Below are positions 3,510 through 28,470 of a stretch of DNA of 64,000 nt, one piece after another. This stretch comes from Candidatus Wolfebacteria bacterium GW2011_GWE2_44_13 (GTDB lineage: Bacteria; Patescibacteriota; Minisyncoccia; UBA6257; UBA9933), in NCBI GenBank assembly GCA_001000675.1, contig LCHW01000003.1, positions 3,873 to 67,872 of the forward strand, read 5' to 3'. The position numbers and the translations under genes are program-made. The notes beneath the pieces were generated by a model. That model did no database searches and had not been told where the DNA came from. It saw only the letters and a program-made list of their open reading frames with translations. Numbering within the stretch: position 1 is the stretch's first letter; the number at the start of each line of letters is the position of its first letter.

Positions 3510-4637
3510 TTATTGCAAATCTAAGCTATATAACTTCTTATCGTATCTGTTTATGAACACAATCTTATCTTCCAATACAGTTAAGTTCGTTGCATCAATT
3601 TTTGGATTCTCATCTTCAAAAATTGCCCGGATTCCATTATTTGTTAGATCGATTTGATAGATACCATCTTGGAAATATACGTCCCGCTTAAGATAGTCAT
3701 CTGGCAATGTCATGCGAGCGAGCGCTGCTTGGTCGCGAGGGATTGCACAATACATCTGCTCTGGTGCTGTTATTGCACACTTGTCTGGCAATGTAATGAA
3801 TCGCAACGTATTTAATTCGTTTCCTTTATCATCGATTAGTGCCAACTTATGTTTACGCCCTTCTGTGGTCGTAAACTTAAGTGCTCGCGTTCCGAATGGC
3901 GCCCATTGCACTATCAATCCCCTGTCTGATAGAAACTTTGCGATTGTTTTTGTTTTAACATCAACCCTCCACATGTCTGAAACATATTCTGCGGATGGTT
4001 TTTGGGTTACATATATTACATCGCTTTGCGGCCACTGTAATGTAAAATCGCTTTGCGAAATTTTCGTAACTTCTAAAAACTTTGCGGTATCGCTTAGCCC
4101 AATCACATCCGCAACCTGCGTTCTTAGCCATCTTACATCTCCTGTTTGAATTATATAAGCCGCATCTTTTCCTTTCGGAGCCCATGTTATCTCCTCTACT
4201 CCGCCAACTGAAGTCCCTGGAAGATTGCTCGTTAAATCAAACGGATTGAATCTAATCCCCTCAGATGATTGCGCTTCAATAAAGACAGCTTCTCCATTCG
4301 CTGACGGACGAACACTTCTTATATTTGCAATCGATTGCTCGTACAACAGCTCATCACTCTCATTATTGACCGTTATTATACTCCCTTCGCTATCTACATA
4401 TAGTATCGCTGGGCTTGATGTTGCATCGGCTATCCAATAGCCCGCAACCGTACGCGAACTAATAGCTCGAAGGCGTTCCTTTTTTTGCTCAAGCGGTTGA
4501 ATTGGCTCATTGTTTATGCCAGGAATATTACTTATTACAACAGCTCTGTTTTGCCATGCAAAATATGCGCCTATTCCTAATGCAATAACTCCCAGCACAG
4601 CACTCGCCCCAATAATTATTTTTTTATTTCTTTCCAT
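3510..4637 (-). CDS. Hypothetical membrane-anchored, secreted beta-rich protein
   Basis: 375 aa, single N-terminal TM, no recognisable catalytic motif. Lies 4 nt downstream of the HK stop. Confidence 0.4.
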   Translation of the reverse strand: MERNKKIIIGASAVLGVIALGIGAYFAWQNRAVVISNIPGINNEPIQPLEQKKERLRAISSRTVAGYWIADATSSPAILYVDSEGSIITVNNESDELLYEQSIANIRSVRPSANGEAVFIEAQSSEGIRFNPFDLTSNLPGTSVGGVEEITWAPKGKDAAYIIQTGDVRWLRTQVADVIGLSDTAKFLEVTKISQSDFTLQWPQSDVIYVTQKPSAEYVSDMWRVDVKTKTIAKFLSDRGLIVQWAPFGTRALKFTTTEGRKHKLALIDDKGNELNTLRFITLPDKCAITAPEQMYCAIPRDQAALARMTLPDDYLKRDVYFQDGIYQIDLTNNGIRAIFEDENPKIDATNLTVLEDKIVFINRYDKKLYSLDLQ

Positions 4638-4654: not shown

Positions 4655-5644
4655 TTATCTCGTGGAGCAATCCCAATGAGGTGCTGCAGGGGGCTTTTCT
4701 GACGAACACGTCACGCCCGTAACTTTATCACGAAAGGTTGCATAACTATCGCTACGCGTCGCTATTCTCTCAAATCTCTGCGGATTATTTACAAAAGCTA
4801 TCTCAACTCCAGGAGAAACTCTCATATCCCACTTATATCCTTCTGCGTGCGGTGTCCCTGGATCGTGCGCCTCTGTTACCGAAGTAATATTAATCGGCAC
4901 TCCCGCATCCGCCATTGATACAATTCCATCAAGCGTTATTTGCTTTACTCCTTGAAAGGATATGCACCCGACAGTACCCCCACCAGGAACACACTCTTTG
5001 AGCATTGCAATACCCCCAATTGACTCTAATCTGCTCCGGATATGCGATACCGGAGTGTCTGCAAGTGGTCTCCCGGCGTAAGCACCGTCACCAACAACAA
5101 CTGGCGTACTTGTTGAGTCTCCTGGCAACTCCATACCAACGGGTATATAGGGCGTTGCATTTATTTTTACCTTTGGCTGGAGTGCATTTTGGATACGCTC
5201 CACATCGACAATATTTGGATTAATCGTATTAAACAATACCTGCGCACCGAATAAAAGCACAATGCCTTTTAATGCATTTTTTATATAATCGTTACTTGCT
5301 TTTATCTTTCCTGGATCTGCCGACATTGTACGCAATATTCCTCCGTACATAATTACTCCAACAGCAACAACACCCACTAAACCCATTAGGTATTGATATA
5401 CCAAAAATACCATGTCCGCCGGCCCCTTTGCACCTAATAACACATTCGGCAAAAAGCGCGGCGTATAAATAAGATCTGCAGCTGCCTGTGGCGTACCTGC
5501 CGTCGTCGTTGCAGCCTCTCCGATTGAAATCATTACACCACTTAAAAGCAAGCAGGCGACTACGATTATCGAGCCGTTTAAAAGTCCTGAGCTCATTCGC
5601 TTTGCCATATATTGTATTGTACTTAAAAGGATTCGCGTTTTCAT
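4655..5644 (-). CDS. Pilin-like (VirB2/TrbC-like two-helix) membrane protein with C-terminal putative M15-like zinc peptidase domain
   Basis: Long hydrophobic leader, then two hydrophobic helices (MVFLVYQYLMGLVGVVAVGVIMYGG ... GIVLLFGAQVLF) as in T4SS pilins. The C-terminal 190 aa carries HAEGYKWD (HxxGxxxD) and PHWD, resembling the peptidase M15 Zn-ligand pattern. Confidence 0.35.
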   Translation of the reverse strand: MKTRILLSTIQYMAKRMSSGLLNGSIIVVACLLLSGVMISIGEAATTTAGTPQAAADLIYTPRFLPNVLLGAKGPADMVFLVYQYLMGLVGVVAVGVIMYGGILRTMSADPGKIKASNDYIKNALKGIVLLFGAQVLFNTINPNIVDVERIQNALQPKVKINATPYIPVGMELPGDSTSTPVVVGDGAYAGRPLADTPVSHIRSRLESIGGIAMLKECVPGGGTVGCISFQGVKQITLDGIVSMADAGVPINITSVTEAHDPGTPHAEGYKWDMRVSPGVEIAFVNNPQRFERIATRSDSYATFRDKVTGVTCSSEKPPAAPHWDCSTR

Positions 5645-5661
5645 ATGCTTATTTTTACTCT

Positions 5662-6366
5662 TTACAATATATCGACGAACATCTTTTTTGTGATATTCTC
5701 TAGCAGCTTCCCCTTATTTATCATCGTTGCCTCGAGTGTATATTTTGCGCCTGTCTTTGCATCATTTCCAATAGTCATTACCAACACTGGATCATTTGCT
5801 CTTCCTGTTTCCAGCGCATTTCCGTTCACTTTCCAGCGCAAGCTTAACGCTTCATTACTCGTGGTATTAAAATAGAACGGCCATGCATAAAATGTATTAT
5901 CACCTTTTTCTACCTTCTTTTGAAAATACGGGACATCGATCACAACCTCTGGTGACTTCACCGGAATATCGAATATTTTTTCTAAAGGCCTTCCTTTATA
6001 ATCTGGGAGTACTATCTTTATATTTAAAACATCTCCACCATATTTTTTATTAAACACAATTACTTTTCGTATTCCTAGCCCGTTCGTCTCATTCTTTATC
6101 AGTTTCCCATCCACATACCAACGAACTGAGGACGTTGCAAGATTTGCTACTTTTCCATCTTCAATTAATTCAAATGCAACATCAATTGGACTTTGATAGG
6201 TTGGGAGCGCTTTACCCGCATACCATGCGGGTACATAGGTTCGCGTATGCCAACTGGTCATAAATTCTACCGCCGCTTCCGCCGATGGAATAAAGATTGT
6301 AAACGCAACGATCAACACGCTTACGATAGTACAGATGTATCCGATTGTTTTATTACTATGTTTCAT
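5662..6366 (-). CDS. Hypothetical secreted/membrane-anchored protein
   Basis: 234 aa with N-terminal TM/signal. Lies in the T4SS-like cluster. Confidence 0.4.
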   Translation of the reverse strand: MKHSNKTIGYICTIVSVLIVAFTIFIPSAEAAVEFMTSWHTRTYVPAWYAGKALPTYQSPIDVAFELIEDGKVANLATSSVRWYVDGKLIKNETNGLGIRKVIVFNKKYGGDVLNIKIVLPDYKGRPLEKIFDIPVKSPEVVIDVPYFQKKVEKGDNTFYAWPFYFNTTSNEALSLRWKVNGNALETGRANDPVLVMTIGNDAKTGAKYTLEATMINKGKLLENITKKMFVDIL

Positions 6367-6411
6367 TTTTATAGATTCCAGCTCAAGACTGGAATGACCT
6401 GGGGTAAGTTA

Positions 6412-7062
6412 CTAAGCCACTTCTTGCTGCAGATTACCCTCTTTGCCGTCATACCGCGTAATCTCTTGCTCTTGCGTGGCTGATTTTTCCATCCTCTTCG
6501 CTCCCATAACACCCGCTTCCGATGCTCGATTTGCCGAAGCCATACGTTGCCGCGCAGCGGAAACACCCTTTTGTTCTACCTTTGTCACCGTAGCACCAGT
6601 GAATTTTCGGGTCGCGATTTTAGTAGCCATACCACCAGCTACTTTTGCAGCGGCGCCGCCAGCCACTCCTCCGAATACAGTCGCCCCGATCTGAATCGCC
6701 TGTCCTGTAACTTTTGCAATAACCCCCATCACCTTTTCCATTTTGTCTGGGTTGTTGATAATCCAGATACCCGCTACTAGCGCGACTGTTTTACCTGGCG
6801 CTAGATTTGCCGTAGCCGCATTGATTGACGTTCCAATTGGCTGAACAATTAACTTCATGACACCCCTACCTCCCCGCAACAGCATGTACGCCTCTATCGC
6901 TAATCCAGTCGCTAAATTCATTGGCTCTGTTACGATTATACCAGTTCCTAGCGTAATTACCAAAATAAGAAACTCAAAAAACTCTTCTGTTCCAACTAGC
7001 AGCACCACAAATATTGTTTCTGCAAGCCCTATTGTTTTTTGCTTAATTTCTTCTTCTGGCAT
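6412..7062 (-). CDS. Hypothetical Gly/Ala-rich membrane protein
   Basis: 216 aa with two N-terminal hydrophobic helices followed by a G/A/K-rich region. RBS-like GGAAGGA upstream. Confidence 0.4.
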   Translation of the reverse strand: MPEEEIKQKTIGLAETIFVVLLVGTEEFFEFLILVITLGTGIIVTEPMNLATGLAIEAYMLLRGGRGVMKLIVQPIGTSINAATANLAPGKTVALVAGIWIINNPDKMEKVMGVIAKVTGQAIQIGATVFGGVAGGAAAKVAGGMATKIATRKFTGATVTKVEQKGVSAARQRMASANRASEAGVMGAKRMEKSATQEQEITRYDGKEGNLQQEVA

Positions 7063-7325
7063 GGTTTTATAATCCTTCCGTTGCTATTTAGGAACTGGAT
7101 ACCGGCCTCTGCGCTCCGTGTGCCACCGCTAAAGCTAAGGCGACACGCGGTCGGCCATAGCCTTTGGCGGCGTGCGACCGGTATGACATCGTATTGTCAT
7201 CCCGTGCCACAATACGGGATCCAGTATTTTGCGTACAGGACTCTGGATTTCAGACATGCTTGCTAACATTCTGGAATGACAATGTGGGGAGTTTGGATGA
7301 CAATACAAGGCATTTTTGTTGTCGG
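7063..7325 (-). other. GC-rich highly structured intergenic element (candidate ncRNA or mRNA structure) inside the T4SS-like operon
   Basis: About 260 nt with visibly higher GC than its flanks. It has multiple hairpins: a 12-bp long-range pairing gtattgtcatcc/ggatgacaatac, cccgt..acggg, atccag..ctggat and the nested ggtcg-gcca..tggc..cgacc. The tgtcat/atgaca word recurs. Confidence 0.3.
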
Positions 7326-9077
7326 TTATTTGTTCTCTTCCGCCTGCTGCAACAACTGCTCTGGATCTGTTGTGATGATTCGATCTTCGAAATATGATGG
7401 GATTATTTTAATTGCAACATGCTTAAGCCCTACTAAAAATATTCCTTCTCCTACTCCCGCAGACAACACTAAGCTTTTTTCTGTTTCACTTAGCGCGAAT
7501 GTTTTTGCAAGCACTTCAATACTCGATGGAGCCTGCTTTAGTAATAATTGCAATGACGAGTTGGATACGATTGGCACTCCATAGGGAGAGTTCATGAAAT
7601 CGTCTACGTTCTGTGTAATCGTTGTCATGCCCAAATAGTATTTTCTGCATCGCTTCGCGAGACCAAACAAGAACGAGGCACTGTCGGGATGCTTCATCAA
7701 TACCCATGCTTCGTCAATAATAAGAATGCGCTTTTTCATTTCAGCGCGAATCAAATTCCATATATAGCTCAACATCATGTACATAGCGATTGGACGCAGC
7801 TCCTCTTCAAGATCGCGTGTCGAGAAAATAACAAGCCTATTTTTAATGTCTACATTCGTTTGTCTATTTGCAAATCCCGCATACGTCCCTTGCGTAAATT
7901 TGTATAGCTTTGCCGCCATACTCTTTCCTCCTTCCATGTTTTCTAACACAGTTTGCAAATCGCTCAATAAAGGCGCTTCCAGCCCGGTAAAATCTTTTAC
8001 ATCACTTGTAATACCTCGTGATGCATATGTTTCGTTGATTGCGCGATCCATGAGCGCGTCTTCTTCTGGCGTTAGTACTCCCATCATCAGCTTTAATAAA
8101 CCAACAACATTTAAAATGTGTGATCGAAAAACGTCTGCAGGATCTTCCCCTACCGGCACAACAGGAATGTCGAGTGGATTTATGGCTGTATCAGATGTTA
8201 GCGAAATTTTTAACAAACTTCCTCCAACCGCGTCTGAAAGTTTTTCATATTCATTCTCTGGATCGATAACAATCACGTCGATGCCCATCATTAATGAACG
8301 CAATATTTCCAACTTTGTTCCGTACGATTTTCCAGCTCCCGACTTTGCGAACACTACCTGGTTTGCATTTTCTAATGAAAAGCGATCGAAGATGATTAAC
8401 GAATTATTGTGCTGGTTGATGCCATAAAGCACACCCTTGTCTGATGTAAGATCTTCTGAAACAAACGGAAATAGTGACGATATTGGACTCGTGTTTAGCG
8501 CGGTATGAATTTGCAACTTGTCCTGTCCAATCGGTAGCGTTGAAATAAATCCTTCGATGTGCTGGAAAATAGATGGCTTTAAATATACCATCTGACTATC
8601 AAGGATCGACGTAATTCTATCTTCTGCGCGCGAGAGTTCCGCTACTGAATTTGCATATACGGTTATATACACGCCAACGTCAAAGAGCTTCTCTTCCGCC
8701 TGTTGTAGCTGGTCGCGAAGCGCTTCTATATCTTGATATGCGGTTTCCAATGCTGGGTCTCGTACAAGGCCTTTTTCATCGCGCTCTGAAAGCTGCGCCT
8801 CAACTTGCGATACCTTTCTTCGTAGCTTACTTAGCGCGGCCGTTGTTTCAACGGGATGCACAAAAATAGAAACGTCTAATAAATTCGGAAGATTGATAAT
8901 AACGTCAAACCATCCTGTGGAAAGATACCGTGGGTACGTAAAAATAAATAACGTTTTTACATAGGTATCTCCCAGTCGTATAAAATTAGGATTTGCTTCA
9001 AGCGCAGCCGGGGCAATGACGTTTTTTACATCTTCCCCTCCGCCTGTATATGCTTGTGGTACGGTTATTTTTTCCAT
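7326..9077 (-). CDS. VirB4/TrbE/CagE-family type IV secretion ATPase (ATPase domain)
   Basis: Walker A SGAGKSYG, DPENEY, Walker B ILIIDEAWVLM. The architecture is typical of VirB4. Confidence 0.75.
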   Translation of the reverse strand: MEKITVPQAYTGGGEDVKNVIAPAALEANPNFIRLGDTYVKTLFIFTYPRYLSTGWFDVIINLPNLLDVSIFVHPVETTAALSKLRRKVSQVEAQLSERDEKGLVRDPALETAYQDIEALRDQLQQAEEKLFDVGVYITVYANSVAELSRAEDRITSILDSQMVYLKPSIFQHIEGFISTLPIGQDKLQIHTALNTSPISSLFPFVSEDLTSDKGVLYGINQHNNSLIIFDRFSLENANQVVFAKSGAGKSYGTKLEILRSLMMGIDVIVIDPENEYEKLSDAVGGSLLKISLTSDTAINPLDIPVVPVGEDPADVFRSHILNVVGLLKLMMGVLTPEEDALMDRAINETYASRGITSDVKDFTGLEAPLLSDLQTVLENMEGGKSMAAKLYKFTQGTYAGFANRQTNVDIKNRLVIFSTRDLEEELRPIAMYMMLSYIWNLIRAEMKKRILIIDEAWVLMKHPDSASFLFGLAKRCRKYYLGMTTITQNVDDFMNSPYGVPIVSNSSLQLLLKQAPSSIEVLAKTFALSETEKSLVLSAGVGEGIFLVGLKHVAIKIIPSYFEDRIITTDPEQLLQQAEENK

Positions 9078-9086
9078 AATAGTTAC

Positions 9087-9752
9087 TTATTGCTTCTTCG
9101 CTATTCCAATTCCCTTCTTTTCTGTTTCAGCTGGATTGTACAAATTATAGAACAGTTCGATGAGCTCTTCGTCATTTAGTGCCACCGCACGCAACCCAAT
9201 ACTCGCAAGCCCTGAGGCAATGTTATCGGCGCGCTGGTTGAGTTGCTCAATTGCTTCATCGAGCGATTTATCCTCCTGCGCTGTGGGTGTCGTATTTGTC
9301 TTTTTCCCAAAAAATGGCAGCCCCGATAATAGCCCTCCCGCGCTCGGCAGCACAACCCTGTCGTAGGGAACGACAACGAAAAACGATTTACCCATAATTT
9401 CACTCTGTTCAACGAACGATTTTATAAATTCTGAATATTCGCTTATTTGTTCGCGTAATAAATCGTTTGTTTCTGTTTCTTTTCGCTTGCTTAATCCATC
9501 GAGATATCCCTGAATATTTAATCGTCGTGAATGCACAATTATCTGTAATGTAAAGTCGAGCGAATTGATAAATTCTTGATATGCGCTAAGAATAATGTTT
9601 TTATCCTCCTCTGATTTCAACGCAAAATTGATCCCACTCACAAGAAGGATTTTTCTTAACGAACCACCTTTCAAAAGGACTGTCCCGTTATATACTCGCT
9701 CTACATCCACAAATTGTTGCGTTGCTTGTGCTTCTTGCGCCATAGGTATCAT
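9087..9752 (-). CDS. VirB4-family N-terminal domain, encoded as a separate ORF in the same frame as the ATPase ORF
   Basis: The VLLKGGSLRKILLVSGINFALKSEEDKNIILSAYQEFINSLDFTLQIIVHSRR pattern matches the VirB4/TraC N-terminal region. Its stop TAA (9087-9089) is followed by 9 nt and then the ATG of the ATPase ORF in the same reading frame. Confidence 0.5.
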   Translation of the reverse strand: MIPMAQEAQATQQFVDVERVYNGTVLLKGGSLRKILLVSGINFALKSEEDKNIILSAYQEFINSLDFTLQIIVHSRRLNIQGYLDGLSKRKETETNDLLREQISEYSEFIKSFVEQSEIMGKSFFVVVPYDRVVLPSAGGLLSGLPFFGKKTNTTPTAQEDKSLDEAIEQLNQRADNIASGLASIGLRAVALNDEELIELFYNLYNPAETEKKGIGIAKKQ

Positions 9753-9838
9753 TATTCTCGTTTAAGCGAGAATGTATATGTTATATCAATATATAAGAAA
9801 TTACCGTACTTCATCGTATTGTACCATACTATCCATCC

Positions 9839-10375
9839 TTATCTAAAATCGACTCGTTTTGCAGTTGCTTGGTCTCCTGTCTGTCTTCGGAAAATACTTA
9901 CCTTTTCTGTATCAACAACGGGCACTCCTTTTTCTCGTTGCGGTATAGGATTTTTCGATGTTGTAAGATCTCCTGATAATTTATTAATTGATGGCATTTG
10001 TGCGGTGAATTTTTTAAGCGTATTCCGTTGATCCACGATGTGCTCTTCTGATACTGGCATTTGTGGAAATTCGGGAACCTCTATCGTCCTCTCTTGCGCT
10101 TCGCGCTTCCAGAGATACAAACGTGGTTTCCAAAAAAATCCAAGGGCAGCAAAGGCTATACGTGGCAACGGTTGTCCATTAACTTTTACCAGCGCAAGTG
10201 CAAGCGCACCTCCCAGCGCAACAAGCCCAATAAGTAATGCGGCAAAAAATGGCAGGAGCGTAAACGCCAAAAAAGTAACTATTCCACCCCCTACGACATA
10301 CAATAATTGTCGTAACGAGAACGGTCCAGCTATTTTATCCTCCATTTCAATGAATTGCGGGATTTGGAATTGCAT
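9839..10375 (-). CDS. Small two-TM membrane protein, VirB3-like by position
   Basis: 178 aa with two adjacent hydrophobic helices. It sits immediately upstream of the VirB4 ORFs, which is the conserved VirB3-VirB4 order. Confidence 0.35.
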   Translation of the reverse strand: MQFQIPQFIEMEDKIAGPFSLRQLLYVVGGGIVTFLAFTLLPFFAALLIGLVALGGALALALVKVNGQPLPRIAFAALGFFWKPRLYLWKREAQERTIEVPEFPQMPVSEEHIVDQRNTLKKFTAQMPSINKLSGDLTTSKNPIPQREKGVPVVDTEKVSIFRRQTGDQATAKRVDFR

Positions 10376-10415
10376 TACAGTAAAGTTTTCGGTTAATCGA
10401 GCAATTCGTTGCTTC

Positions 10416-11714
10416 TTATTTCTTATCGTCTACTCGTTCTAAAATTCGTAAATCAATAACATCGCCACTTACCGGTATCTCAGCTAATCGTGGCTCTTTT
10501 TCTGCAGTGGCTTGCGCCGTCATTGAAGGTTCGCCTCGCTGCGGCGTTTTCATAACTTCTCCTAGTGGTATCTGTGGCGACACGACAGGCGCGACAGCTG
10601 GTTGCATAGGAGTAGTAACTGACTGTTGCATATCCTGTATACTATTGGCAGATTTTTGCTCAAAGTTTACCTCGTGTTCTTGCTTTGTTACGGGCGCAAA
10701 TGCCGTAGCTTGCCGTTGTTCCTGTGCTTGTTCTCTTGCGCTGCTTTGTAGTGTTTCTATCGGCCTTACTTCCTCTGTTTTTTGTTCAGATGCTGGTTGC
10801 TCGTCATGGGCCATTAAGTCAACCATCTTGGGCTCAAAATTAACCTCGTGTTCTTGCTTTGTTACGGGCGCAAATGCCGTAGCTTGCCGTTGTTCCTGTG
10901 CTTGCTGCCCAAAGATATCTTCGGTCGCCTTTGCGGCTGTATAATGCACAACGCGCGGTGCTTGCTGCTCGGTTCTTGCAACATCCCCTGCTTTGCGCTG
11001 GAGCCCTTCTGCCATACTTACTTGCGCCGTAATTGCAGCTCCTCCATTTTCTACTCCCTTTTCCTTTCCAAAGCCAAACATTCCTCCAAACGAACTAAAT
11101 GACCTCCCTTTTCGAGAAACCGTTTTTAGCTCTGTCTCCGAGTGAATCATTGTCGGCGCCGCAATCCCCTCTTCTTGTATTTGATCTTTAGGCGCTTCCG
11201 CTATCACAGCTGCAGACGCATCTTCACCGTCCTGTATTTTTATCTTTCGCACATCAAATTGCGTAGACTCTTTTGTTGTCATTACTGCAGGTTCACCCAG
11301 CTCTGCTGGTGTATATAATTCTCCGCTCGCTTTTGCACGCTCTCTAATTTCAACACTTGTTTCTTCGATAATCCGCGGACCACTTCCAGATACTGTTCTG
11401 TACAATTTTAATATATCCCCTCTAACCGGATCGAATATTCTATGATCAACTTGAAAAATAATCGCATCCGCGGCCTTCTTATCGATACCAGGAATTGACT
11501 GCAATTCTGCCGAAAAATCATTGATGTGCGTAAAGCCGAGCACGATATTCCCTACTACGTTTGCAACATTCTTTATGATGTCCTTGGGCAATCCAGCTTC
11601 TTCGCAGACATTCGAAATAGCCTCTCCGTTTTCGAATGAGAAAAAGGCTTCTCGCAAGCTCTCTGGCGTTGCTTCCCATCGGTCATAAATTTGTTCTTTC
11701 GTAATTATTTGCAT
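10416..11714 (-). CDS. Hypothetical protein with internal tandem repeat
   Basis: 432 aa. The 25-aa unit EQAQEQRQATAFAPVTKQEHEVNFE occurs twice. Confidence 0.45.
   Translation of the reverse strand: MQIITKEQIYDRWEATPESLREAFFSFENGEAISNVCEEAGLPKDIIKNVANVVGNIVLGFTHINDFSAELQSIPGIDKKAADAIIFQVDHRIFDPVRGDILKLYRTVSGSGPRIIEETSVEIRERAKASGELYTPAELGEPAVMTTKESTQFDVRKIKIQDGEDASAAVIAEAPKDQIQEEGIAAPTMIHSETELKTVSRKGRSFSSFGGMFGFGKEKGVENGGAAITAQVSMAEGLQRKAGDVARTEQQAPRVVHYTAAKATEDIFGQQAQEQRQATAFAPVTKQEHEVNFEPKMVDLMAHDEQPASEQKTEEVRPIETLQSSAREQAQEQRQATAFAPVTKQEHEVNFEQKSANSIQDMQQSVTTPMQPAVAPVVSPQIPLGEVMKTPQRGEPSMTAQATAEKEPRLAEIPVSGDVIDLRILERVDDKK
10663..10907 (-). repeat. Intragenic direct repeat (two copies of about 65 bp, identical)
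   Basis: aacctcgtgttcttgctttgttacgggcgcaaatgccgtagcttgccgttgttcctgtgcttg at about 10663 and about 10843. Confidence 0.8.
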
Positions 11715-11760
11715 ATTTTTTCGAGTACGCTCGTGTTATGAGCGTACTCGTTGTTTCGTT

Positions 11761-13863
11761 TTACGCACCACTTTCGAATAATCGACTTGCCATACTGTTT
11801 TCGAATGACTTATTGCGATTGATCATTTTTTTATAATCATGCGCCTTAAGTCTCTCCATCGTCATTGCATTTGCATTCTTTTTTATGGCCTCGTACGCTT
11901 CTTTCATATCCATCCCTTCAATATTCTCTACCCCTGAAGCAACAGACACTTCTTTCAACAATGCCATAGCTTCCTTTTGTGATTCCTCGTGCACGGCTCT
12001 TATTTCACTCGCAAACTTTGCCATCTTTTCTTTGTCTTTCATCTTTCCCGCGACTTTCGCAATTGCGCCAGGGAATTCCGCTACCATGCGCTTACGCGCC
12101 TCTTGTGCAAACTCAGAATCTCCGGTATATGCCGATTCTGGCATATCCGCATAATCCTTAGCCGAAGTGAAGCCTTCGTAGAACTTTGTCATCGCTTCGT
12201 CCAACTCTCTCTGTGCTGCTTCTACCTCTGCTGAAGTTGTCGCCCCTGCTGGCATATTAGCTATCGCAGCCTTCTTTGCTTTCGATGCCTTCACCATAGC
12301 AGCACTCTTTCCGGCTGCCTTTTCCATCTTCCCGTGTGCCTTTCCATCTCCGTACTGGGCAAATGCTGGACCCATTGTCTCGATATCTCGCTCAAGTACT
12401 GTTTCGTTAATCTTGTCCACCTTATTAGCCTTCACAAGTCGATCCATGGCAAATACCTTTTCATCCCTACTCATCGTCGAGTAGCGCAATGCCAAATCAT
12501 CATCGGACATTTTCCCAAAGCTCTCATCAAATGCTTTCTTTACCGCTGCTTTCTGACCTTCTGAAATTGCGCCTCCTGCACGACCCAGCTTTCCAGCGGC
12601 CCAGCCCTTTACTCCGCCTTCTCCTTCCATCTTACGCAATCTTTCTGCTCTGTCTGCCAGGCCTACTTTACTACTAAGAGCCGTTACTCCTCGATTCTTT
12701 AAACGCAATGATTCTCTTCGTCCATACGCGGCTGTTCCAGCGGCAGCGCCAACTGCAGCTCCTCTTGCACCTTTACCCCATCCTTGAATCTTTCCTTGAC
12801 CCCATCCGGTCATCGATCCCATCATATCCTTCCCTCCTTTTGCTCCGGAAATACTAATACTGTTTGCGGCAATTAATGACATAATCATCAACATAACAGC
12901 TATTACCATTTGGATAATCGCGCCAGTCATCGATGGCGCGAGCCCATCACCAAAAACAGCTGCTGCCGTTCCTACTGCAGGAGCTTCTTCATTTCCCTTT
13001 AACGCGCTCAACGATGTGAGCGAAAGCCACATGAAAAATATCATAACCGGAGGGAACATGGTCCAACGCACAAAGTCATTCCACCATTTATCCCAGTGCT
13101 TTTTTGTACCTGGGAATATCCACGCGACAAAAATGATCGGGGTTAACGTCAATAAAAACGTGAGGATAAAGAACCGTACAAACATCATCGCTGCGATTGT
13201 AAGCATAATAACCGATGCAATGAGCGTAAATATAACGACAAATGCTCCGCTTATTAAAATCATCAGCATCGCAGTCCCGAACTTATCCATTGCTCCTTGA
13301 CCCCCGACACCCGAAGTACTTAATAAGCCCGATATGTCAAACGCAGACGCAAGCGCTGATGAAATATTATCGCCCGTTAAGCCAGATTGATTCGCAAAAA
13401 ACTCAGTGGCCATACCCGACATATCTAAAAATACGCCAGGGATTACTAAGCTAAAGTTTACCAACAACGCAATAACGATTAACCGTGGCAATGCCTTTTG
13501 CATGCCATAGGTTTGCGAATTCAGCATTGTTGCAAATGCAATAATGATTAATGCGACAACGAGTGCAAGGTCGGCAACGTTTACAAATACTGTCCATCCA
13601 TTAAACAAGAACGCATTTGATTCTGGATCGAGAATATTATTATTGAGCCGCATTGCCACTTCGATCATCCATCCACCCGCCATAAATATCTTTTGCGCGA
13701 GTGCGGTAAGCAATGTAAGCAATACTAAGACGAGCTTCGTGACTACATTTGTTGAAAGTGACGTAAGGTCAAAAAATCCCGCGTGCGCCTTGGTTGTAAG
13801 CGCAAATTCAAAAAGCACAGCAAGTAACCCAACCGAAATAAATTTTTTATAGATTGATTGCAT
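11761..13863 (-). CDS. VirB6/TrbL-like polytopic inner-membrane protein
   Basis: 700 aa, signal peptide, more than 8 TM helices in the N-terminal 350 aa, G/A/K-rich and coiled C-terminal half. The topology is typical of T4SS VirB6/TrbL. Confidence 0.55.
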   Translation of the reverse strand: MQSIYKKFISVGLLAVLFEFALTTKAHAGFFDLTSLSTNVVTKLVLVLLTLLTALAQKIFMAGGWMIEVAMRLNNNILDPESNAFLFNGWTVFVNVADLALVVALIIIAFATMLNSQTYGMQKALPRLIVIALLVNFSLVIPGVFLDMSGMATEFFANQSGLTGDNISSALASAFDISGLLSTSGVGGQGAMDKFGTAMLMILISGAFVVIFTLIASVIMLTIAAMMFVRFFILTFLLTLTPIIFVAWIFPGTKKHWDKWWNDFVRWTMFPPVMIFFMWLSLTSLSALKGNEEAPAVGTAAAVFGDGLAPSMTGAIIQMVIAVMLMIMSLIAANSISISGAKGGKDMMGSMTGWGQGKIQGWGKGARGAAVGAAAGTAAYGRRESLRLKNRGVTALSSKVGLADRAERLRKMEGEGGVKGWAAGKLGRAGGAISEGQKAAVKKAFDESFGKMSDDDLALRYSTMSRDEKVFAMDRLVKANKVDKINETVLERDIETMGPAFAQYGDGKAHGKMEKAAGKSAAMVKASKAKKAAIANMPAGATTSAEVEAAQRELDEAMTKFYEGFTSAKDYADMPESAYTGDSEFAQEARKRMVAEFPGAIAKVAGKMKDKEKMAKFASEIRAVHEESQKEAMALLKEVSVASGVENIEGMDMKEAYEAIKKNANAMTMERLKAHDYKKMINRNKSFENSMASRLFESGA

Positions 13864-13890
13864 GTGCTTTTTACTACTTTTCTTCTTCTA

Positions 13891-15444
13891 TTACTGACCG
13901 ATAGGCGCTGTACTTTCTATTGTTCGACATGTTGTCAAACGAGTTAACACGAGATTCAAATCGCCAGCCAGAGCAACTGCCTGACTTTTTGCTTCTATAA
14001 GGACATTTGGCTCCGGAGCACTCGGGTCTTCACTTAACCCCTCGCCAGCGAGCGTGTATTTTTCGTTAAATTTCTTTAGTGCAGTTTTTATGAGTGTTAA
14101 TTCCCTTGTTTTTGATAGATCCGCTGCATTTATCTTATTTATCAATTCATTCGCCTCATCAAATTTTGCTTGGTATATTGCAATTGTCGCTACAAGCTTA
14201 TTTCCTTTGGTGCGCGCATCACTTACTTCGCCGTCGGTCACAGTAGGAGGGCATTCGTATACAATGAATGGGTTGGGTGATGGTATGGCCGCTAATTTTT
14301 CTTGAATTGTCTTTATCGCTCCTAAATTTGAAACAATTTGAGCGTTATATGTTGCGGATTCGTTCTTTGCAGCAATCATCGCCTTCCATAGGTCATAGAA
14401 TGGCTGTACTTGGTCTATAAAATCATCTTTTGTAGCGTTATTAAGCGCGTCTATCTGGTCCTGAAAATCGTCCGATGGATTATATCCACTTCCCGGAGCA
14501 GGTTTACCTGTCATCAACGAAAGTCCTTCGCTCATCATTCTGTTTATGCCAGCGTTGATTGCTGCAGAAATAATACTTTGCACTCCTGACACATAAATAT
14601 TATCAGATCCGATCATATTTTTAACCGTTCCCGCAACTGCATCTCCAGGGGTTTGTACCTGCTCTTTTGTACACGATTTATTTTGATCGGCGTAATCGTA
14701 GCAATAGTTAGGGTTACCTGTGTCGAAGTAATTATTTTCAACACAATAATCGTATAGCTTTTGGCTGTCATCCTCGACACACTTACTTACCGATAAAAAT
14801 CCACTTCCAGCCCCTGCCTCCTGCTTTTTCTTTTCTTCAGTAGCTGTTGACCGGATTTTCATATCATCATCAAACATTGCCAGCTGCATGTATAAATTAT
14901 TCTCCGGCTTTAATGACTCACCGTATGCAAGCCATCCACCATTTTCAAAATTTTCATAAAAATCTTCGACGTTCGCTACGATGTCCGAGATAGTACATTT
15001 TGCCTTTTGACTTATTGGCTTTGTTTCAGGAATCAATGCTAGCTGCAGCTGAAATGCAAACGGAACACACAAATCAGCCATTTGTGATTGGCTTATTGTT
15101 TGGTTCACCCCCTCCATGGCGGCGTCCTTTAAGAACCCTTGCCAGTCATCAACGAATCGCGGACTTCCATTCCCCTGAATCCACGCGACGGTCTGCTTAT
15201 TTATTTCATCAACCATCGCCTTTACTATTTGGTCACGTAACGTCTTCATTAACTCCTCCTTGACCCATTGCCCGAGCTGCGTAACCCAATTCGCCACGTC
15301 CTTGTATATCTCCATTTTTTTCAACGCAATTAACCCAGCGTCAACAACCGGAATAGCGTACGTTTTTTGAGGAGTTGCTAATCCAACGAACAGCACCGAC
15401 ACACATACGAACAATGCAACAATTTTTTTAAGAGTATTAGACAT
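13891..15444 (-). CDS. Hypothetical secreted protein (signal peptide, Cys-containing)
   Basis: 517 aa, N-terminal signal ending at the YA/IP cleavage-like site, several Cys pairs, coiled-coil segments. Confidence 0.45.
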   Translation of the reverse strand: MSNTLKKIVALFVCVSVLFVGLATPQKTYAIPVVDAGLIALKKMEIYKDVANWVTQLGQWVKEELMKTLRDQIVKAMVDEINKQTVAWIQGNGSPRFVDDWQGFLKDAAMEGVNQTISQSQMADLCVPFAFQLQLALIPETKPISQKAKCTISDIVANVEDFYENFENGGWLAYGESLKPENNLYMQLAMFDDDMKIRSTATEEKKKQEAGAGSGFLSVSKCVEDDSQKLYDYCVENNYFDTGNPNYCYDYADQNKSCTKEQVQTPGDAVAGTVKNMIGSDNIYVSGVQSIISAAINAGINRMMSEGLSLMTGKPAPGSGYNPSDDFQDQIDALNNATKDDFIDQVQPFYDLWKAMIAAKNESATYNAQIVSNLGAIKTIQEKLAAIPSPNPFIVYECPPTVTDGEVSDARTKGNKLVATIAIYQAKFDEANELINKINAADLSKTRELTLIKTALKKFNEKYTLAGEGLSEDPSAPEPNVLIEAKSQAVALAGDLNLVLTRLTTCRTIESTAPIGQ

Positions 15445-15448
15445 GAGA

Positions 15449-16267
15449 TTATAATCCTACTTCGGCGTACATTTTCACTAACGACTTTTGTAATGTGTCT
15501 GAATTTTTTATAAAGTCTGGTAATACCTGTGTCGCTAGTAGTCCTTTTAGCGGATCATTATAGCAATTTGCAATCGAGTTAAAAATTATATTCCCTTTCC
15601 GATAATGTGTGATTATTTGTCGATGGAATTCAGCCCACTGAGACGGCACCTGTATGCGAATAACGTCGTCTGCAGTTTCAGTATATGTCGTAGCCATTTC
15701 TCTCCCAACACCGCTTTCCTTCCCTGCACACGCGCGCTCGATTAGTCCTTGCACTCCTCCTTCTACGTTTTCGTAGCTCTTCTTGGCTGGGTGTCGCGCT
15801 AGCGCAGCTTCTAAATCACTGAGGTATCTTTTTTTTGCATCTTGCGTGTTATTTGCAATTATTTTTAGGTCCTTATCGGTTACCGAGATTGTCGCAAATA
15901 GCGATTCAGTCGATGTATCTACTGAGCGAGTAATTGAGCTCTGCACTGCAAATGAATTTGCAGTATCTTCGTCAAAGGGATTTTTCCCTTCCTGGTCAAG
16001 CTGCTTCATTTGCTCAAAAGTTGCGAGGGCAACGCTTTCTGTTACATTATTTTTATCCCCCTCCTTCTCACTCGTAACCGCTGCAAGCCAATCTGTTGAG
16101 ACTCCTATATCTTCGAGAAATCCGGATGCAGAAGAACCATCTAATGATGGTTGTGATTTTTCATTTACTTGCTGTTGACTATCCTCTCCTCGATTGACTA
16201 CGGCATACGATCCAAATAACACAATCGCAATTGCCGCAAATATAATTGCCATTCGATTTCTCTGCAT
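15449..16267 (-). CDS. Hypothetical membrane-anchored protein
   Basis: 272 aa with N-terminal TM. It is the first gene of the minus-strand cluster, with a possible TTGCGG-17-TATACT promoter just upstream. Confidence 0.45.
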   Translation of the reverse strand: MQRNRMAIIFAAIAIVLFGSYAVVNRGEDSQQQVNEKSQPSLDGSSASGFLEDIGVSTDWLAAVTSEKEGDKNNVTESVALATFEQMKQLDQEGKNPFDEDTANSFAVQSSITRSVDTSTESLFATISVTDKDLKIIANNTQDAKKRYLSDLEAALARHPAKKSYENVEGGVQGLIERACAGKESGVGREMATTYTETADDVIRIQVPSQWAEFHRQIITHYRKGNIIFNSIANCYNDPLKGLLATQVLPDFIKNSDTLQKSLVKMYAEVGL

Positions 16268-16313: not shown

Positions 16314-17864
16314 TCACTCTCCTTGTCCAGTCATCGTTGAATAATACGTGGGTATATACTGATTAAAATAATTGTTCATAAGTGGCATCATTAAGCGCTC
16401 TACGGGAGCATGGTTATCTTTTAATAAAACTCCCTTGCTGGCGACAATACTATCGTCAATAAGCAGCTTCGATAAAAATTCTCCATTTTCTCCCCGTGCT
16501 ATTTTTTCTCGTATCTCTTGTATATTTATCGCGTTATTTGTGTTTACCCCTACAAGAACAATATTTTGCGGCGCATATTCACTTTCCCCATATGCAAACA
16601 TTACATATTGGCTAAAGGTTTCTCTAAATGTTTTCCCTATACTCTCAAAAAGTCCGGCATTTTCTCCTGCTCGTGCTGAAATAAAATTTACTGCGTATAA
16701 ACCATTTTCATTTAAATGATTTTTCACCTCTTCATTAAACTCCCTTGTTGTCATATGCCATGGCACAGAAACAAACGAGTTATACGCATCAGAAAATATG
16801 AGGTCGTATTTTTTATCCGTTCGCTGTAAAAAAACTCGCCCATCGGCAACTTCAGTCTGCATTGGGTATTCTCTTAATTTAAAATAGTCTTCTGCGACCT
16901 GCTGTACTTTTGGGTCGATTTCTACGGTTGTCACATTTGCATCTTTATATGCGGAGACGATTTTTTTCGAAAGCGTGTACGATCCTCCTCCTATCACAAG
17001 AACATCTTTCATCGAACTCCCCATTGCAGAAAATATCGGGTATATATCGGGGTAAAGATTAAGCTTCTGCCCTTCCAGGCCTTCTACACTATGCGAATCG
17101 GCGTCTAAAAATAATGTTCGCACCTTGCCGTTTTTCTCGGTACTACTGTCTACTACTTGAATCTTATAATACTCACTTTCCGCAGCGAACACTTTTCCCC
17201 GCACATCGGTGAATAAATGCATTACGTATGTCACCACCCCTACGCATAAAAACAGTACTGCGATCCATGCTAATCGTTTTTTAGATGTATACAGGATAGC
17301 TGCATTTATTAATAGCACTATAGCAATTAGTAGTATCGTGGCAGAGCTCCCTACATATCCGATAAAATAAAAGCCGGCAAGAAATGTACCGACAATACTC
17401 CCTAGTGACCATGTAGCTGATATTTGTCCTGATTTAATGCCCGTTGTTTCCGTTGTTTTAAGATGAAGCTTTAAAATACTCGGGTATAGTGTTCCGAAAA
17501 GTACCGCTGGCACAAAAAATAGTACTAATGCTAATAATAATGTTGTTATCGAAATAGGTAATCCCAAAAGCGCAACTACTGGGGAAAAATACGCCCCCAA
17601 TGGTATTAAGAATGTCACTATCGAGGTTATCGCAAATAATAACGAGAGCTCTTTTCTCGATCCATATTTATCCGCATATATACCACCTCCATAGTTTCCG
17701 ATTGCCATGCCGAACAACACGACACCAATAACTGACGTCCATGTGTAAATTGATGACCCTACGTATGGCGCCATAATACGCGTCGCGATTAGCTCGATAA
17801 CCATCAAGGCAAATCCTGCGATAAAAGCCGACCCGATTAATATATTGCGATCATTTTTTATCAT
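16314..17864 (-). CDS. speE: Polyamine aminopropyltransferase (spermidine synthase) fused to an N-terminal multi-TM domain
   Basis: The C-terminal domain has VLVIGGGSYTLSKKIV ... VEIDPKV ... DLIFSDAYNS. The N-terminal 200 aa has multiple TM helices. Confidence 0.7.
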   Translation of the reverse strand: MIKNDRNILIGSAFIAGFALMVIELIATRIMAPYVGSSIYTWTSVIGVVLFGMAIGNYGGGIYADKYGSRKELSLLFAITSIVTFLIPLGAYFSPVVALLGLPISITTLLLALVLFFVPAVLFGTLYPSILKLHLKTTETTGIKSGQISATWSLGSIVGTFLAGFYFIGYVGSSATILLIAIVLLINAAILYTSKKRLAWIAVLFLCVGVVTYVMHLFTDVRGKVFAAESEYYKIQVVDSSTEKNGKVRTLFLDADSHSVEGLEGQKLNLYPDIYPIFSAMGSSMKDVLVIGGGSYTLSKKIVSAYKDANVTTVEIDPKVQQVAEDYFKLREYPMQTEVADGRVFLQRTDKKYDLIFSDAYNSFVSVPWHMTTREFNEEVKNHLNENGLYAVNFISARAGENAGLFESIGKTFRETFSQYVMFAYGESEYAPQNIVLVGVNTNNAINIQEIREKIARGENGEFLSKLLIDDSIVASKGVLLKDNHAPVERLMMPLMNNYFNQYIPTYYSTMTGQGE

Positions 17865-18835: not shown

Positions 18836-18866
18836 TAAAAAACAGGCCTTTGGGCCTGCTTTTTAA
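18836..18866 (-). terminator. Rho-independent terminator (bidirectional hairpin)
   Basis: caggcc tttg ggcctg with T-runs on both sides. It lies downstream of the helicase gene. Confidence 0.6.
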
Positions 18867-27316: not shown

Positions 27317-27483
27317 CTTTTTGTGCCCCTGTGTGGCACCCTCTTCGCACGATAGCATAACATGCTATCGTGCTCGGGGGCAGGCCCAATCTCACTGTGT
27401 CTGCGACGTTCGATTCCACGCAGGGGCAAAGAAAAAAGAGTGGCTTTGAAGCCACTCCTTTTTCTTTTTGTGCCCCTGTGTGG
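27317..27483. repeat. 20-bp direct repeat of a tRNA 3' end (ctttttgtgcccctgtgtgg at 27317-27336 and 27464-27483) flanking a 127-bp segment
   Basis: Exact duplicate of the 3' acceptor/T-stem region of the adjacent tRNA. The intervening segment holds a perfect 12-bp hairpin (gcacgatagcat aac atgctatcgtgc) and an inverted copy of the tRNA T-arm/acceptor. Confidence 0.7.
27421..27478. terminator. Long palindromic terminator module mirrored onto the tRNA acceptor
   Basis: caggggcaaagaaaaaagagtggc tttgaa gccactcctttttctttttgtgcccctg. Confidence 0.55.
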
Positions 27484-27542: not shown

Positions 27543-27639
27543 TTTTATTGCAACTTTCCTACTATACCCATAGGGCTCATTTTTTGCAACCCTCTAGTGC
27601 CTCCCTATTACCAGCAGGCACTAGCGTGCAAATCTCCTA

Positions 27640-28443: not shown

Positions 28444-28470
28444 CTCTTTTATATATATTGCTTTTTAAGT

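Follow-up and report, generated by a model that had tools for sequence, protein, structure and literature searches.

The closest described systems are type IV secretion systems (T4SS) of other Patescibacteria. Quinonero-Coronel et al. (2025; PMC12102498) placed a Patescibacteria clade of VirB4 within MPF-FATA and reported TrsD beside VirB4, PrgI, VirB6 and PF18895 pilins, no relaxase, and ksgA nearby. In Southlakia epibionticum (SEML1_0005-0019), the supplementary table of Wang et al. (2023; PMC10633639) lists the genes as VirB6 - NTF2 - x - PrgI - x - VirB4 - x - lysozymes - Ig-like exported protein, and this homologous T4SS was essential for growth on the host. These two descriptions served as comparators for a gene cluster in a 64-kb stretch of DNA (hereafter the window) of Candidatus Wolfebacteria (Paceibacteria) from groundwater; identical contigs were present in groundwater metagenomes and in GCA_003508115.1. 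The cluster very probably represents a chromosomal, vertically inherited T4SS typical of Patescibacteria, derived from monoderm conjugation machinery (MPF-FATA class) and showing a Paceibacteria gene order. We know of no cultivated Wolfebacteria.

Gene row and conservation of the locus

The following features were assigned (basis in parentheses):

3510-4637, minus strand: 375-aa membrane-anchored protein, TolB-like beta-propeller (orthologue profile)
4655-5644, minus strand: 329-aa protein, VirB2-like T4SS pilin domain and C-terminal globular domain (T4SS_pilin, AF2/Foldseek)
5662-6366, minus strand: 234-aa exported or membrane-anchored protein, two Ig-like beta-sandwich repeats (orthologue profiles)
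6412-7062, minus strand: 216-aa small membrane protein (TM prediction, iterated HMM search)
7063-7325, minus strand: 263-nt non-coding structured spacer (folding)
7326-9077, minus strand: VirB4 ATPase, middle and C-terminal ATPase domains (Pfam, PDB, motifs)
9087-9752, minus strand: 221-aa TrsD-like protein, the VirB4 N-terminal domain as a gene of its own (NCBIfam)
9839-10375, minus strand: PrgI family protein, VirB3 equivalent of monoderm T4SS, two TM helices (PF12666)
10416-11714, minus strand: 432-aa protein, variable cluster member (tblastn, TM prediction)
11722-11750, no strand: perfect 13-bp palindrome (terminator-like scan)
11761-13863, minus strand: 700-aa TrbL/VirB6-like polytopic membrane protein (orthologue profiles, TM prediction, UniRef name)
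13891-15444, minus strand: 517-aa exported Cys-rich protein with C-terminal helical bundle, conserved accessory subunit
15449-16267, minus strand: 272-aa protein with N-terminal TM/signal segment, mostly helical (TM prediction, tblastn)
18863-20680: uvrD/pcrA
20729-22261: comM
25048-27228: recG

Between positions 236 and 22261 every gene was on the minus strand, in a close co-directional row. The tight co-directional arrangement described in an earlier note, made from the sequence alone, was therefore found, but its single operon of 11.6 kb was not retained, since spacing alone sets no operon limits and the row extends well past both ends of that segment. The note had counted 11 genes in 4655-16267; the actual number is 10, as the 375-aa gene that it included lies outside this interval.

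Among 86 related loci, from Wolfe-, Jorgensen-, Harrison-, Azam-, Zambryski-, Kaiser-, Giovannoni-, Nomura- and Taylorbacteria, the order uvrD-ksgA-[272]-517-VirB6-[432]-PrgI-TrsD-VirB4-3TM-Ig-pilin-propeller was conserved, with VirB4 identities of 57-92% across the Paceibacteria candidate phyla that share it. Base composition of the cluster did not differ from that of its flanks, and neither integrase, repeats nor a tRNA boundary was found at its ends. Conservation of the order next to the housekeeping genes uvrD and ksgA, together with the unremarkable GC, indicated an inherited locus rather than the island previously proposed. The same observations bear on a reading of the cluster as a decayed or cryptic ICE or plasmid, a conjugative remnant that lost relaxase, coupling protein and integrase and has no cellular role. 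Its closest VirB4 relatives outside Patescibacteria are indeed located on conjugative plasmids; on plasmid NZ_CP108778.1 of Embleya sp., virB4 adjoins genes for PrgI, a coupling protein (T4CP), a replication-relaxation protein and NlpC/P60. However, every gene of the cluster is intact, its order persists between housekeeping genes over many candidate phyla, its composition and ends carry no trace of an element, and the homologous Southlakia system is essential (PMC10633639), which makes a remnant highly improbable.

Core components of the secretion system

The VirB4 ATPase matched the Pfam families P-loop_TraG (E 1.9e-21), AAA_10 (1.6e-09) and DUF87 (1.2e-07), as well as TraC_F_IV, and its best solved homologue was Thermoanaerobacter VirB4 (4ag5, E 1.3e-42). 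Walker A (SGAGKS), DPENEY and Walker B (ILIIDEAW), reported earlier, were all readable in the translation. The best 120 homologues were all 568-596 aa long and all from Wolfebacteria or Patescibacteria, while the nearest plasmid-borne VirB4s, from Actinomycetota and Bacillota, showed 29-36% identity. In public records, the VirB4 and VirB6 of the window already bear these names (UniRef: TrbL/VirB6).

The 221-aa product encoded upstream of virB4 matched the NCBIfam model TrsD (NF041427, 2.7e-10) and N-terminal parts of three VirB4 models: VirB4_plasma (7.4e-12, model positions 102-233 of 894), CD1110-type VirB4 (5e-10, positions 1-105) and TIGR00929 (2e-06, positions 4-186). A precomputed match to PF26593 (TraC-like) was also available. 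These results, together with the Pfam and 4ag5 matches of the ATPase, bore out the split VirB4 proposed before. The TrsD-like gene was present in 83 of the 86 loci, and TrsD and VirB4 were separate genes in 77 of 79, mostly in different frames, with fusions in L019 and L023. The split is the normal, ancestral two-gene arrangement. A disrupted VirB4, or readthrough at the in-frame TAA, was rejected because of this recurrent separation in mostly different frames; the TAA is a coincidence.

Directly upstream of the TrsD-like gene, in 79 of the 86 loci, lies the PrgI gene, whose product scored 37.3 bits with PF12666 (E 4.2e-09; curated cut-off 27), in agreement with the two-TM VirB3-like protein of the earlier note. 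The 700-aa protein is of the 'extended VirB6' type, with an N-terminal signal, approximately 6 TM helices (7 TM-like segments predicted) and a hydrophilic C-terminal region of approximately 350 aa. This protein itself gave no Pfam match at E 0.1; its VirB6 assignment follows from a weak precomputed TrbL_3 match on the exact protein and from syntenic orthologues, 5 of 32 of which matched PF04610 (TrbL/VirB6; best 1.1e-06). Profile searches thus confirmed the VirB4, TrsD, PrgI/VirB3, TrbL/VirB6 and, as discussed below, VirB2-like pilin parts, and every component that the earlier note had called was borne out.

As the earlier note had stated, neither VirD4-type coupling protein (T4CP), VirB11, relaxase nor integrase was found in a Pfam scan of 44 of the 47 window ORFs of at least 150 aa. 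Homologues of coupling proteins occur commonly elsewhere in the genomes of Patescibacteria (PMC12102498); the lack of one in the 64-kb window need not hold for the whole genome. Neither a VirB8-like (NTF2) protein nor a recognised VirB1 family member was found.

The internal structured RNA-like element noted before corresponds to the 263-nt spacer, for which two long hairpins were predicted (MFE -83.4 kcal/mol, z -2.84, 0/200 shuffles as stable). The spacer contained no long ORF and had no Rfam match; it recurred neither elsewhere in the window nor in the 86 loci, and JGI metagenome contigs gave no exact 33-mer match. At the same place, two relatives (L004 and L005) have just 18 and 30 nt. The spacer is a lineage-specific insertion. 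The VirB6-like and 432-aa genes are 46 nt apart, and this gap holds the 13-bp palindrome.

Accessory proteins and the pilin with a peptidase-like domain

Five proteins had been listed as secreted or membrane-bound and without a recognisable family, a description that held only in part. The 432-aa protein showed neither a TM segment nor a signal in TM prediction and is hence not secreted or membrane-bound. Its gene, which tblastn located between the VirB6-like and PrgI genes of 20 loci, encodes a conserved N-terminal domain of approximately 105 aa and, after it, a low-complexity stretch in which a 58-aa segment is duplicated; the underlying direct repeat (10658-10730 and 10832-10904) is 97% identical. 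No PDB match was obtained, and the sole Pfam match, HHH_5, was non-significant (E 0.071). Two other proteins could be given folds, both newly reported. The 375-aa protein, with an N-terminal TM segment, is encoded downstream of the pilin gene in 52 loci; its orthologue profile matched TolB beta-propellers (E 1.4e-10), and five orthologues matched PD40 and three DPPIV_N, which identifies it as a TolB-like propeller, a conserved component at the 3' terminus of the cluster. The 234-aa protein, with an N-terminal TM/signal segment and a gene in 47 loci, is Ig-like: 7 of 31 orthologues weakly matched BiPBP_C, others matched PKD or Big domains, and W83 and W178 were invariant.

The 272-aa protein, with one TM-like segment (residues 6-24), had no significant match in Pfam, NCBIfam or PDB. 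By tblastn its gene occurred in only 10 of the 86 loci, each time just upstream of the 517-aa gene, which makes it a variable component of the cluster's 5' end. The 216-aa protein, with TM-like segments at residues 11-45, combines a core of approximately 110 aa (2-3 TM helices) with a Gly/Ala-rich tail. It had no Pfam or NCBIfam match; positional homologues directly downstream of VirB4 in 24 loci, retrieved by iterated HMM search, place it in a conserved, newly reported family of small 3-TM proteins.

A pilin-peptidase fusion had also been proposed, and both halves found support. The 329-aa protein consists of a signal peptide, a helical hairpin (residues ~67-140), a linker and a globular domain (~190-329). 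Its own match to T4SS_pilin (9.4e-06) was slightly below cut-off; all 26 of 26 positional orthologues matched this profile (best 2e-10). The AF2 model had a mean pLDDT of 76, with mostly 82-96 for residues ~190-329. The top and single fold match of the C-terminal domain in a Foldseek search of the PDB was the LAS-fold L,D-endopeptidase VldE of S. pneumoniae (9flk, E 0.021, probability 0.95). Consistent with LAS/M15 peptidases (VldE, VanX/VanY), a predicted alpha/beta fold was accompanied by invariant H266-x6-D273 and E316, the first with the spacing of H301...D308 in VldE, and by a nearly invariant H323-W-D; a C-terminal His on the final strand is shared too. The domain differs from these peptidases in lacking a significant sequence-profile match (M15 matches, on relatives, were sub-threshold at E 0.0046 and 0.047), in reading HWD in the window clade where the usual motif is HxH, as retained in other Paceibacteria orthologues, and in its fusion to a T4SS pilin domain, seen in 23 of the 35 sequences scanned (the query domain and its 34 homologues). 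Its newly reported identification as a zinc cell-wall peptidase of LAS/M15 type is probable, with moderate support.

Proposed role and comparison with known systems

By reference to known T4SS, the VirB6-like, PrgI and small 3-TM proteins would form the membrane translocon, on which a VirB4 hexamer would dock via PrgI and the TrsD-like domain and power assembly and transport. The pilin-like hairpin would be inserted by Sec and then polymerise or sit at the channel, with its zinc-peptidase-like domain outside the membrane, where it may cut peptidoglycan cross-links. VirB1-type wall opening, which in Southlakia falls to separate lysozyme genes downstream of virB4, would thus be supplied by the pilin itself. 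The Ig-like, propeller and Cys-rich 517-aa proteins may constitute an extracytoplasmic scaffold or contact part. By analogy with S. epibionticum, a member of a different class (Saccharimonadia), the most likely role is contact-dependent exchange with a host cell, either protein export or acquisition of host material. The earlier view of a non-conjugative, dedicated surface or host-interaction machine agrees with published accounts of Patescibacteria T4SS (PMC10633639, PMC12102498, PMC12857230).

Two other functions of the machine were considered. It might only build a surface filament or adhesin display, with the pilin-enzyme fusion, Ig-like protein and propeller serving attachment and wall remodelling and no substrate being translocated. 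In Gram-negative VirB/D4 systems, VirB4 by itself is enough for pilus biogenesis. The locus yielded no coupling protein, the sole pilin-domain gene of the window bears a large extracellular domain, and several exported beta-rich proteins are conserved. However, the VirB6-like channel protein is conserved as well, a 190-aa domain per subunit may fit a VirB2-type helical filament poorly, and attachment of Saccharibacteria has been ascribed to type IV pili rather than to the T4SS (PMC9894109, as cited in PMC12857230); a filament-only function is thus unlikely. Also unlikely is ComB-like DNA uptake or nucleic-acid import, feeding nucleotides or genes to a cell unable to make them, a possibility raised in PMC11665869 with Helicobacter ComB as precedent. 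DNA-processing genes (uvrD/pcrA, comM, recG) flank the locus, uvrD is syntenic with it in 32 loci, and comF, recG and radA occur near virB4 in class ABY1 (PMC12102498). Yet the housekeeping genes uvrD and ksgA are unremarkable as neighbours, comM adjoins in only 4 of the 86 loci, and no DNA-binding component was found, the HHH_5 match of the 432-aa protein being non-significant. Moreover, deletion of comEC in Southlakia ended competence and not viability, whereas the T4SS is essential (PMC10633639, PMC12857230), so that the essential role is not ComEC-linked uptake.

With host exchange as the preferred reading of its role, the origin of the machine can be compared with monoderm MPF-FATA systems (the pGO1/pSK41 trs subclass TrsC-TrsD-TrsE and the CD1110/CTn type). 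These share consecutive genes for VirB3-like, TrsD and VirB4 proteins and the absence of an outer-membrane core (VirB7/9/10). The affinity is indicated by the Bacillota and Actinomycetota origin of the best solved and plasmid-borne VirB4s and by NCBIfam matches to Mycoplasma ICE, CD1110 and TrsD models. In contrast, the window locus is chromosomal and vertically inherited, lacks coupling protein, relaxase and oriT-processing genes, and has a VirB2-like pilin domain, which is generally absent from monoderm conjugation systems (PMC12857230). The Embleya plasmid, whose VirB4 is 36% identical over 95% of the query, has the similar order large membrane protein - PrgI family - VirB4 - ... - cell-wall hydrolase; it differs in carrying a T4CP, a replication-relaxation protein and NlpC/P60 and in lacking a pilin domain.

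In comparison with Southlakia, lysozyme genes and an NTF2/VirB8-like protein were not found, and one pilin-domain gene with a large C-terminal domain stands in place of the six short pilins in array listed there. The conserved TolB-like propeller, Cys-rich 517-aa protein and small 3-TM protein are further extras, of which the main texts of PMC12102498 and PMC10633639 showed no mention. With the Patescibacteria clade, the locus shares its chromosomal location, a VirB4 of ~580-610 aa after a separate TrsD-like gene and PrgI, a giant VirB6-like membrane protein upstream, a PF18895 pilin domain, an Ig-like exported protein and a cell-wall hydrolase function (here putative) downstream of virB4, no relaxase nearby, and ksgA in the neighbourhood. 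The system has thus already been described: it matches the Patescibacteria T4SS of Wang et al. (2023) and Quinonero-Coronel et al. (2025).

Core components and the divided VirB4

The minus-strand gene row contained a VirB4 ATPase, an adjacent VirB3-like protein and a VirB6/TrbL-like channel protein, the components of a VirB4-based T4SS. A VirB2-like pilin (PF18895/PF04956) was encoded near virB4.

Genes of the cluster (window positions), with the number of the 86 compared loci in which each was detected by tblastn; because many loci are incomplete, these counts are lower bounds
15449-16267, (-), 272-aa protein; at least 10 of 86 loci
13891-15444, (-), 517-aa protein; at least 41 of 86 loci
11761-13863, (-), VirB6-like protein, 700 aa; at least 53 of 86 loci
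10416-11714, (-), 432-aa protein; at least 20 of 86 loci
9839-10375, (-), PrgI, VirB3 equivalent; at least 79 of 86 loci
9087-9752, (-), TrsD-like gene, VirB4 N-terminal domain as a separate gene; at least 83 of 86 loci
7326-9077, (-), VirB4
6412-7062, (-), 216-aa small membrane protein
5662-6366, (-), 234-aa protein; at least 47 of 86 loci
4655-5644, (-), pilin fusion, 329 aa; at least 37 of 86 loci
3510-4637, (-), TolB-like protein, 375 aa, with one N-terminal TM helix and a family profile match to TolB beta-propellers (1.4e-10); at least 52 of 86 loci

VirB4 matched Pfam P-loop_TraG (E 1.9e-21), as well as AAA_10, DUF87 and TraC_F_IV (C-terminal part), and the Thermoanaerobacter VirB4 structure 4ag5 in the PDB (E 1.3e-42). 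Walker A, DPENEY and Walker B were all readable in its translation, thus confirming the VirB4-family ATPase proposed in the earlier note. The VirB3-like protein placed upstream of VirB4 was identified as a PrgI family member (PF12666, E 4.2e-09, over the cut-off), with only the TrsD-like gene between the two. The 700-aa protein, proposed as a polytopic VirB6/TrbL-like component, showed seven TM-like segments and a weak precomputed TrbL_3 match; it gave no Pfam match of its own at E 0.1, and five of its 32 syntenic orthologues matched PF04610 TrbL/VirB6 (best 1.1e-06), in support of the assignment. Public records name the VirB4 product 'Type IV secretory pathway VirB4 component-like protein' and the 700-aa product 'TrbL/VirB6'. 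Profile searches supported VirB4, PrgI and TrsD; no VirB8-like (NTF2-fold) bitopic protein was found among the cluster proteins by Pfam, NCBIfam or PDB profiles. VirB8 is seldom detected in Patescibacteria (PMC12102498).

VirB4 had been described as split, and two ORFs were indeed observed. The TrsD-like gene ends in TAA, and VirB4 starts nine bases further on in the same frame. The TrsD-like product matched NCBIfam NF041427 TrsD (2.7e-10); it also aligned with three VirB4 models over their N-terminal 100-190 positions. Of 79 loci, 77 had TrsD-like and VirB4 as separate ORFs, and in 56 of these 77 the two frames differed. In two homologous loci of related genomes (L019, 746-3106; L023, 788-3160) the pair is fused into a single full-length VirB4 ORF of 786-790 aa. 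Because the genes are separate in nearly all loci and mostly lie in different frames, the in-frame TAA was interpreted as fortuitous, the two-gene arrangement itself being old. An alternative code or readthrough was rejected, as the stop is TAA rather than TGA and the frames mostly differ. The same frame differences, together with the universal occurrence of VirB4s of about 580 aa in relatives, spoke against a pseudogene. By these sequence comparisons, the split is the normal state of VirB4 in this group.

Conservation, extent and accessory proteins

A VirB4-alignment scan with one genome per species yielded 594 confirmed relatives; 80 loci were kept and six more were added, giving 86 loci from at least nine named Paceibacteria candidate phyla. 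Searches with every window gene (tblastn) recovered a common order: uvrD - ksgA - [272] - 517 - VirB6-like - [432] - PrgI - TrsD - VirB4 - small membrane protein - 234 - pilin fusion - 375. This single order across at least nine candidate phyla indicated that the locus was inherited with the chromosome. The genomic island of the earlier note was therefore abandoned: GC content across 4-16 kb (0.41-0.45) did not differ from that of the remaining window, and synteny with the housekeeping genes that flank the locus on its Patescibacteria chromosome was conserved. The best 120 of 8000 VirB4 relatives all belonged to Candidatus Wolfebacteria/Patescibacteria, and the nearest plasmid VirB4s, from monoderms, shared only 29-36% identity. 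An identical VirB4 protein occurred on 16 groundwater-metagenome contigs and in GCA_003508115.1.

The boundaries required correction. Ten genes, rather than the eleven counted earlier, lie within 4655-16267; the 375-aa gene included in that count lies at 3510-4637, and the conserved module extends down to 3510. Between 236 and 22261, every ORF of 150 aa or more is on the minus strand, with short gaps, and internal promoters and terminators were not more numerous than in shuffled controls. Four nt past the TolB-like gene, the last of the cluster, starts a PAS/HisKA histidine kinase gene (2186-3505); it had matches in six loci, in five of which it was adjacent to the cluster, so that the adjacency is limited to the closest relatives and may represent a lineage-specific regulatory link. 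At the other end, between ksgA and the cluster, a 516-aa fusion (16314-17864) combines a polytopic domain (seven TM-like segments) with a spermidine-synthase-like domain; it had tblastn matches in only seven loci, close (49-100% identity) in only five.

Several accessory proteins had been listed as secreted or membrane proteins without recognisable family. For the 432- and 272-aa proteins no family was found. The 375-aa protein is TolB-like, individual orthologues matching PD40 and DPPIV_N. The exported or anchored 234-aa protein looks like two Ig-like repeats, and its orthologues matched BiPBP_C, PKD and Big. Since it lacks a TM segment, the 432-aa protein is probably cytoplasmic. PDB profile searches with the 517-, 234-, 700-, 432- and 272-aa families gave no meaningful match. 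The accessory traits noted earlier were recovered: an internal 58-aa segment is duplicated in the 432-aa repeat protein, the 517-aa protein is Cys-rich, and the 216-aa 'Gly-rich' protein has a membrane core. For the latter no homologue was found by tblastn; in an iterated HMM search, however, 24 loci had a positional homologue immediately following VirB4, with a common core of about 110 aa and 2-3 TM helices.

The 432-aa gene contains a 73-nt direct repeat (10658-10730 and 10832-10904), with 97% identity between the copies and a distance of 174 nt. L001, a second assembly from this population, has a broken version of the gene (7264-8662) and a locus shorter by 100 nt, which suggests repeat-linked length variation or assembly collapse. 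A perfect 13-bp palindrome (11722-11750) occupies the 46-nt spacer between the VirB6-like and 432-aa genes.

The internal structured RNA-like element noted earlier corresponds to a 263-nt spacer (7063-7325), whose fold was more stable than those of 200 out of 200 shuffles (z -2.84). It contains no long ORF, and Rfam searches returned no match, which led us to reject a known RNA family. No further copy was present in the window or any locus, so the spacer is not a repeat, and no exact match was found among JGI metagenome contigs. In relatives with VirB4 at 92% and 85% identity, the equivalent position spans only 18 and 30 nt, respectively; the spacer is a recent lineage-specific insertion.

Elsewhere in the window, three mostly intergenic copies of a 50-nt sequence (36320-36369, 40388-40437 and 40910-40959; 64-84% identical to the reference copy) were located between rplJ and rplL, downstream of rplL and downstream of an FtsX-like permease gene; Rfam matches were sub-threshold only (Chlorobi-1, E 0.18). 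Eight tRNA genes cluster on both strands at 27400-29300, with an inverted 30-nt copy of a tRNA 3' end beside tRNA-Arg (27408-27437). Two 35-nt hairpins (45590-45624 and 46123-46157), 94% identical, 533 nt apart and each followed by a T run, look like paired terminators.

The pilin fusion and its C-terminal domain

The T4SS_pilin domain of the 329-aa protein scored half a bit below the cut-off (E 9.4e-06). All 26 positional orthologues matched T4SS_pilin, three of them also TrbC/VirB2, and this was the sole pilin-domain ORF found in the window. The pilin part of the previously proposed pilin-peptidase fusion was thus established; its peptidase part is probable.

In an AF2 model (mean pLDDT 76), a signal helix is followed by a two-helix hairpin (residues 75-140) and, beyond a disordered linker, by an alpha/beta domain (residues ~190-329, pLDDT mostly 82-96). 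The top Foldseek PDB match was the C-terminal domain of VldE (9flk; E 0.021, probability 0.95, TM 0.49 on target), a LAS-fold, M15-like L,D-endopeptidase with zinc ligands H301, D308 and H375 (PMC11667670). H266-x6-D273 and E316 are invariant in the window family, and H323-W-D325 nearly so. The domain thus shows the H-x6-D of the LAS/M15 family, whereas HWD stands, in the window clade, where the family has its HxH zinc-binding motif; more distant orthologues carry HxH. The window domain gave no significant sequence-profile match to M15, and sub-threshold matches came from relatives only (Peptidase_M15_3, 0.0046, in the orthologue of homologous locus L052; M15_4, 0.047, in one relative). With the L052 orthologue as a bridge from the C-terminal domain to M15, only weak matches to Bacillus tectivirus spike and lysin proteins were obtained, and a PDB profile search with the pilin fusion gave no meaningful match. 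No VirB1-family member was found in the cluster; this LAS-like domain is a candidate wall hydrolase. Taken together, the 329-aa protein probably joins a pilin to a cell-wall peptidase, with appreciable room for doubt.

Among 1.84 billion proteins, this rare domain had 34 cluster representatives, and a pilin domain preceded it in 23 of the 35 sequences scanned (query domain plus representatives). Other positional orthologues carry YkuD L,D-transpeptidase, Cys-rich or coiled-coil C-terminal domains. The orthologue in L052 (12942-14168) has a canonical SGYR...SxHxxGxAxD...HxH M15-like domain; that in homologous locus L079 (12770-13765), attributed by its sequence, has a YkuD L,D-transpeptidase domain (6e-12).

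A far-reaching joint reading, which we consider unlikely, is that in Paceibacteria an extracellular, peptidoglycan-active domain is attached to the only VirB2-like pilin of the T4SS and that the fusion, if polymerised or crowning the channel, would form a wall-cutting pilus. Each subunit would then bear a hydrolase directed at the wall of the host or of the cell itself, with a LAS/M15-like domain in the window, YkuD in L079 and different domains in other loci. The TolB-like propeller and the Ig-like protein would make up an outer module specific to the class. In the parts of the literature covered, no description of such a pilin-enzyme arrangement was found for any T4SS.

Comparison with known systems

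As the earlier note had stated, T4CP (VirD4), VirB11, relaxase and integrase are missing: a Pfam scan covering 44 of the 47 ORFs of 150 aa or more in the 64-kb window recovered none of them. The relaxase, T4CP and mobility or integration genes of a conjugative element (ICE or plasmid MPF-FATA) were thus missing within 64 kb and housekeeping synteny was conserved, in agreement with its view that this is not a classical conjugative element. Since other parts of Patescibacteria genomes often contain coupling-protein homologues (PMC12102498), the T4CP result applies to the window only. An actinobacterial plasmid has the same core order as the window locus, but there VirB4 is directly followed by T4CP, a relaxase-like gene and NlpC/P60; comparison of the two gene orders points to these as the genes that the window locus lost or had relocated.

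Few machines have been demonstrated to be indispensable to the epibiotic lifestyle of the ultrasmall Patescibacteria; their T4SS is one of them. By Tn-seq, the homologous locus of Southlakia epibionticum was essential for growth on the host, and its system was noted to have pilins and to lack a coupling protein and relaxase (Wang et al., 2023; PMC10633639). A 2025 FEMS review treats these systems as a recognised T4SS type (PMC12857230); their function is still called unknown (PMC11665869). The window locus is nothing new in kind. The present analysis added corrected boundaries, evidence for the split VirB4 as the normal state, the pilin's C-terminal domain as a probable peptidase and a class-wide Paceibacteria parts list (pilin with probable wall peptidase, TolB-like propeller, Ig-like protein, Cys-rich 517-aa protein and small 3-TM protein), which could steer structural and genetic work once a Paceibacteria host-symbiont culture becomes tractable.

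A survey of 3,035 Patescibacteria genomes (Quinonero-Coronel et al., 2025; PMC12102498) described a VirB4 clade nested in MPF-FATA, combined with TrsD beside VirB4, PrgI, VirB6, PF18895 pilins and almost no relaxases, and with ksgA and replication genes near the system in Paceibacteria. The window locus shares with this Patescibacteria-clade T4SS the TrsD-like gene by virB4, the VirB2-like pilin, the lack of a nearby relaxase and the location on a Patescibacteria chromosome. The earlier reading was a good one, and the locus is an instance of this already described system.
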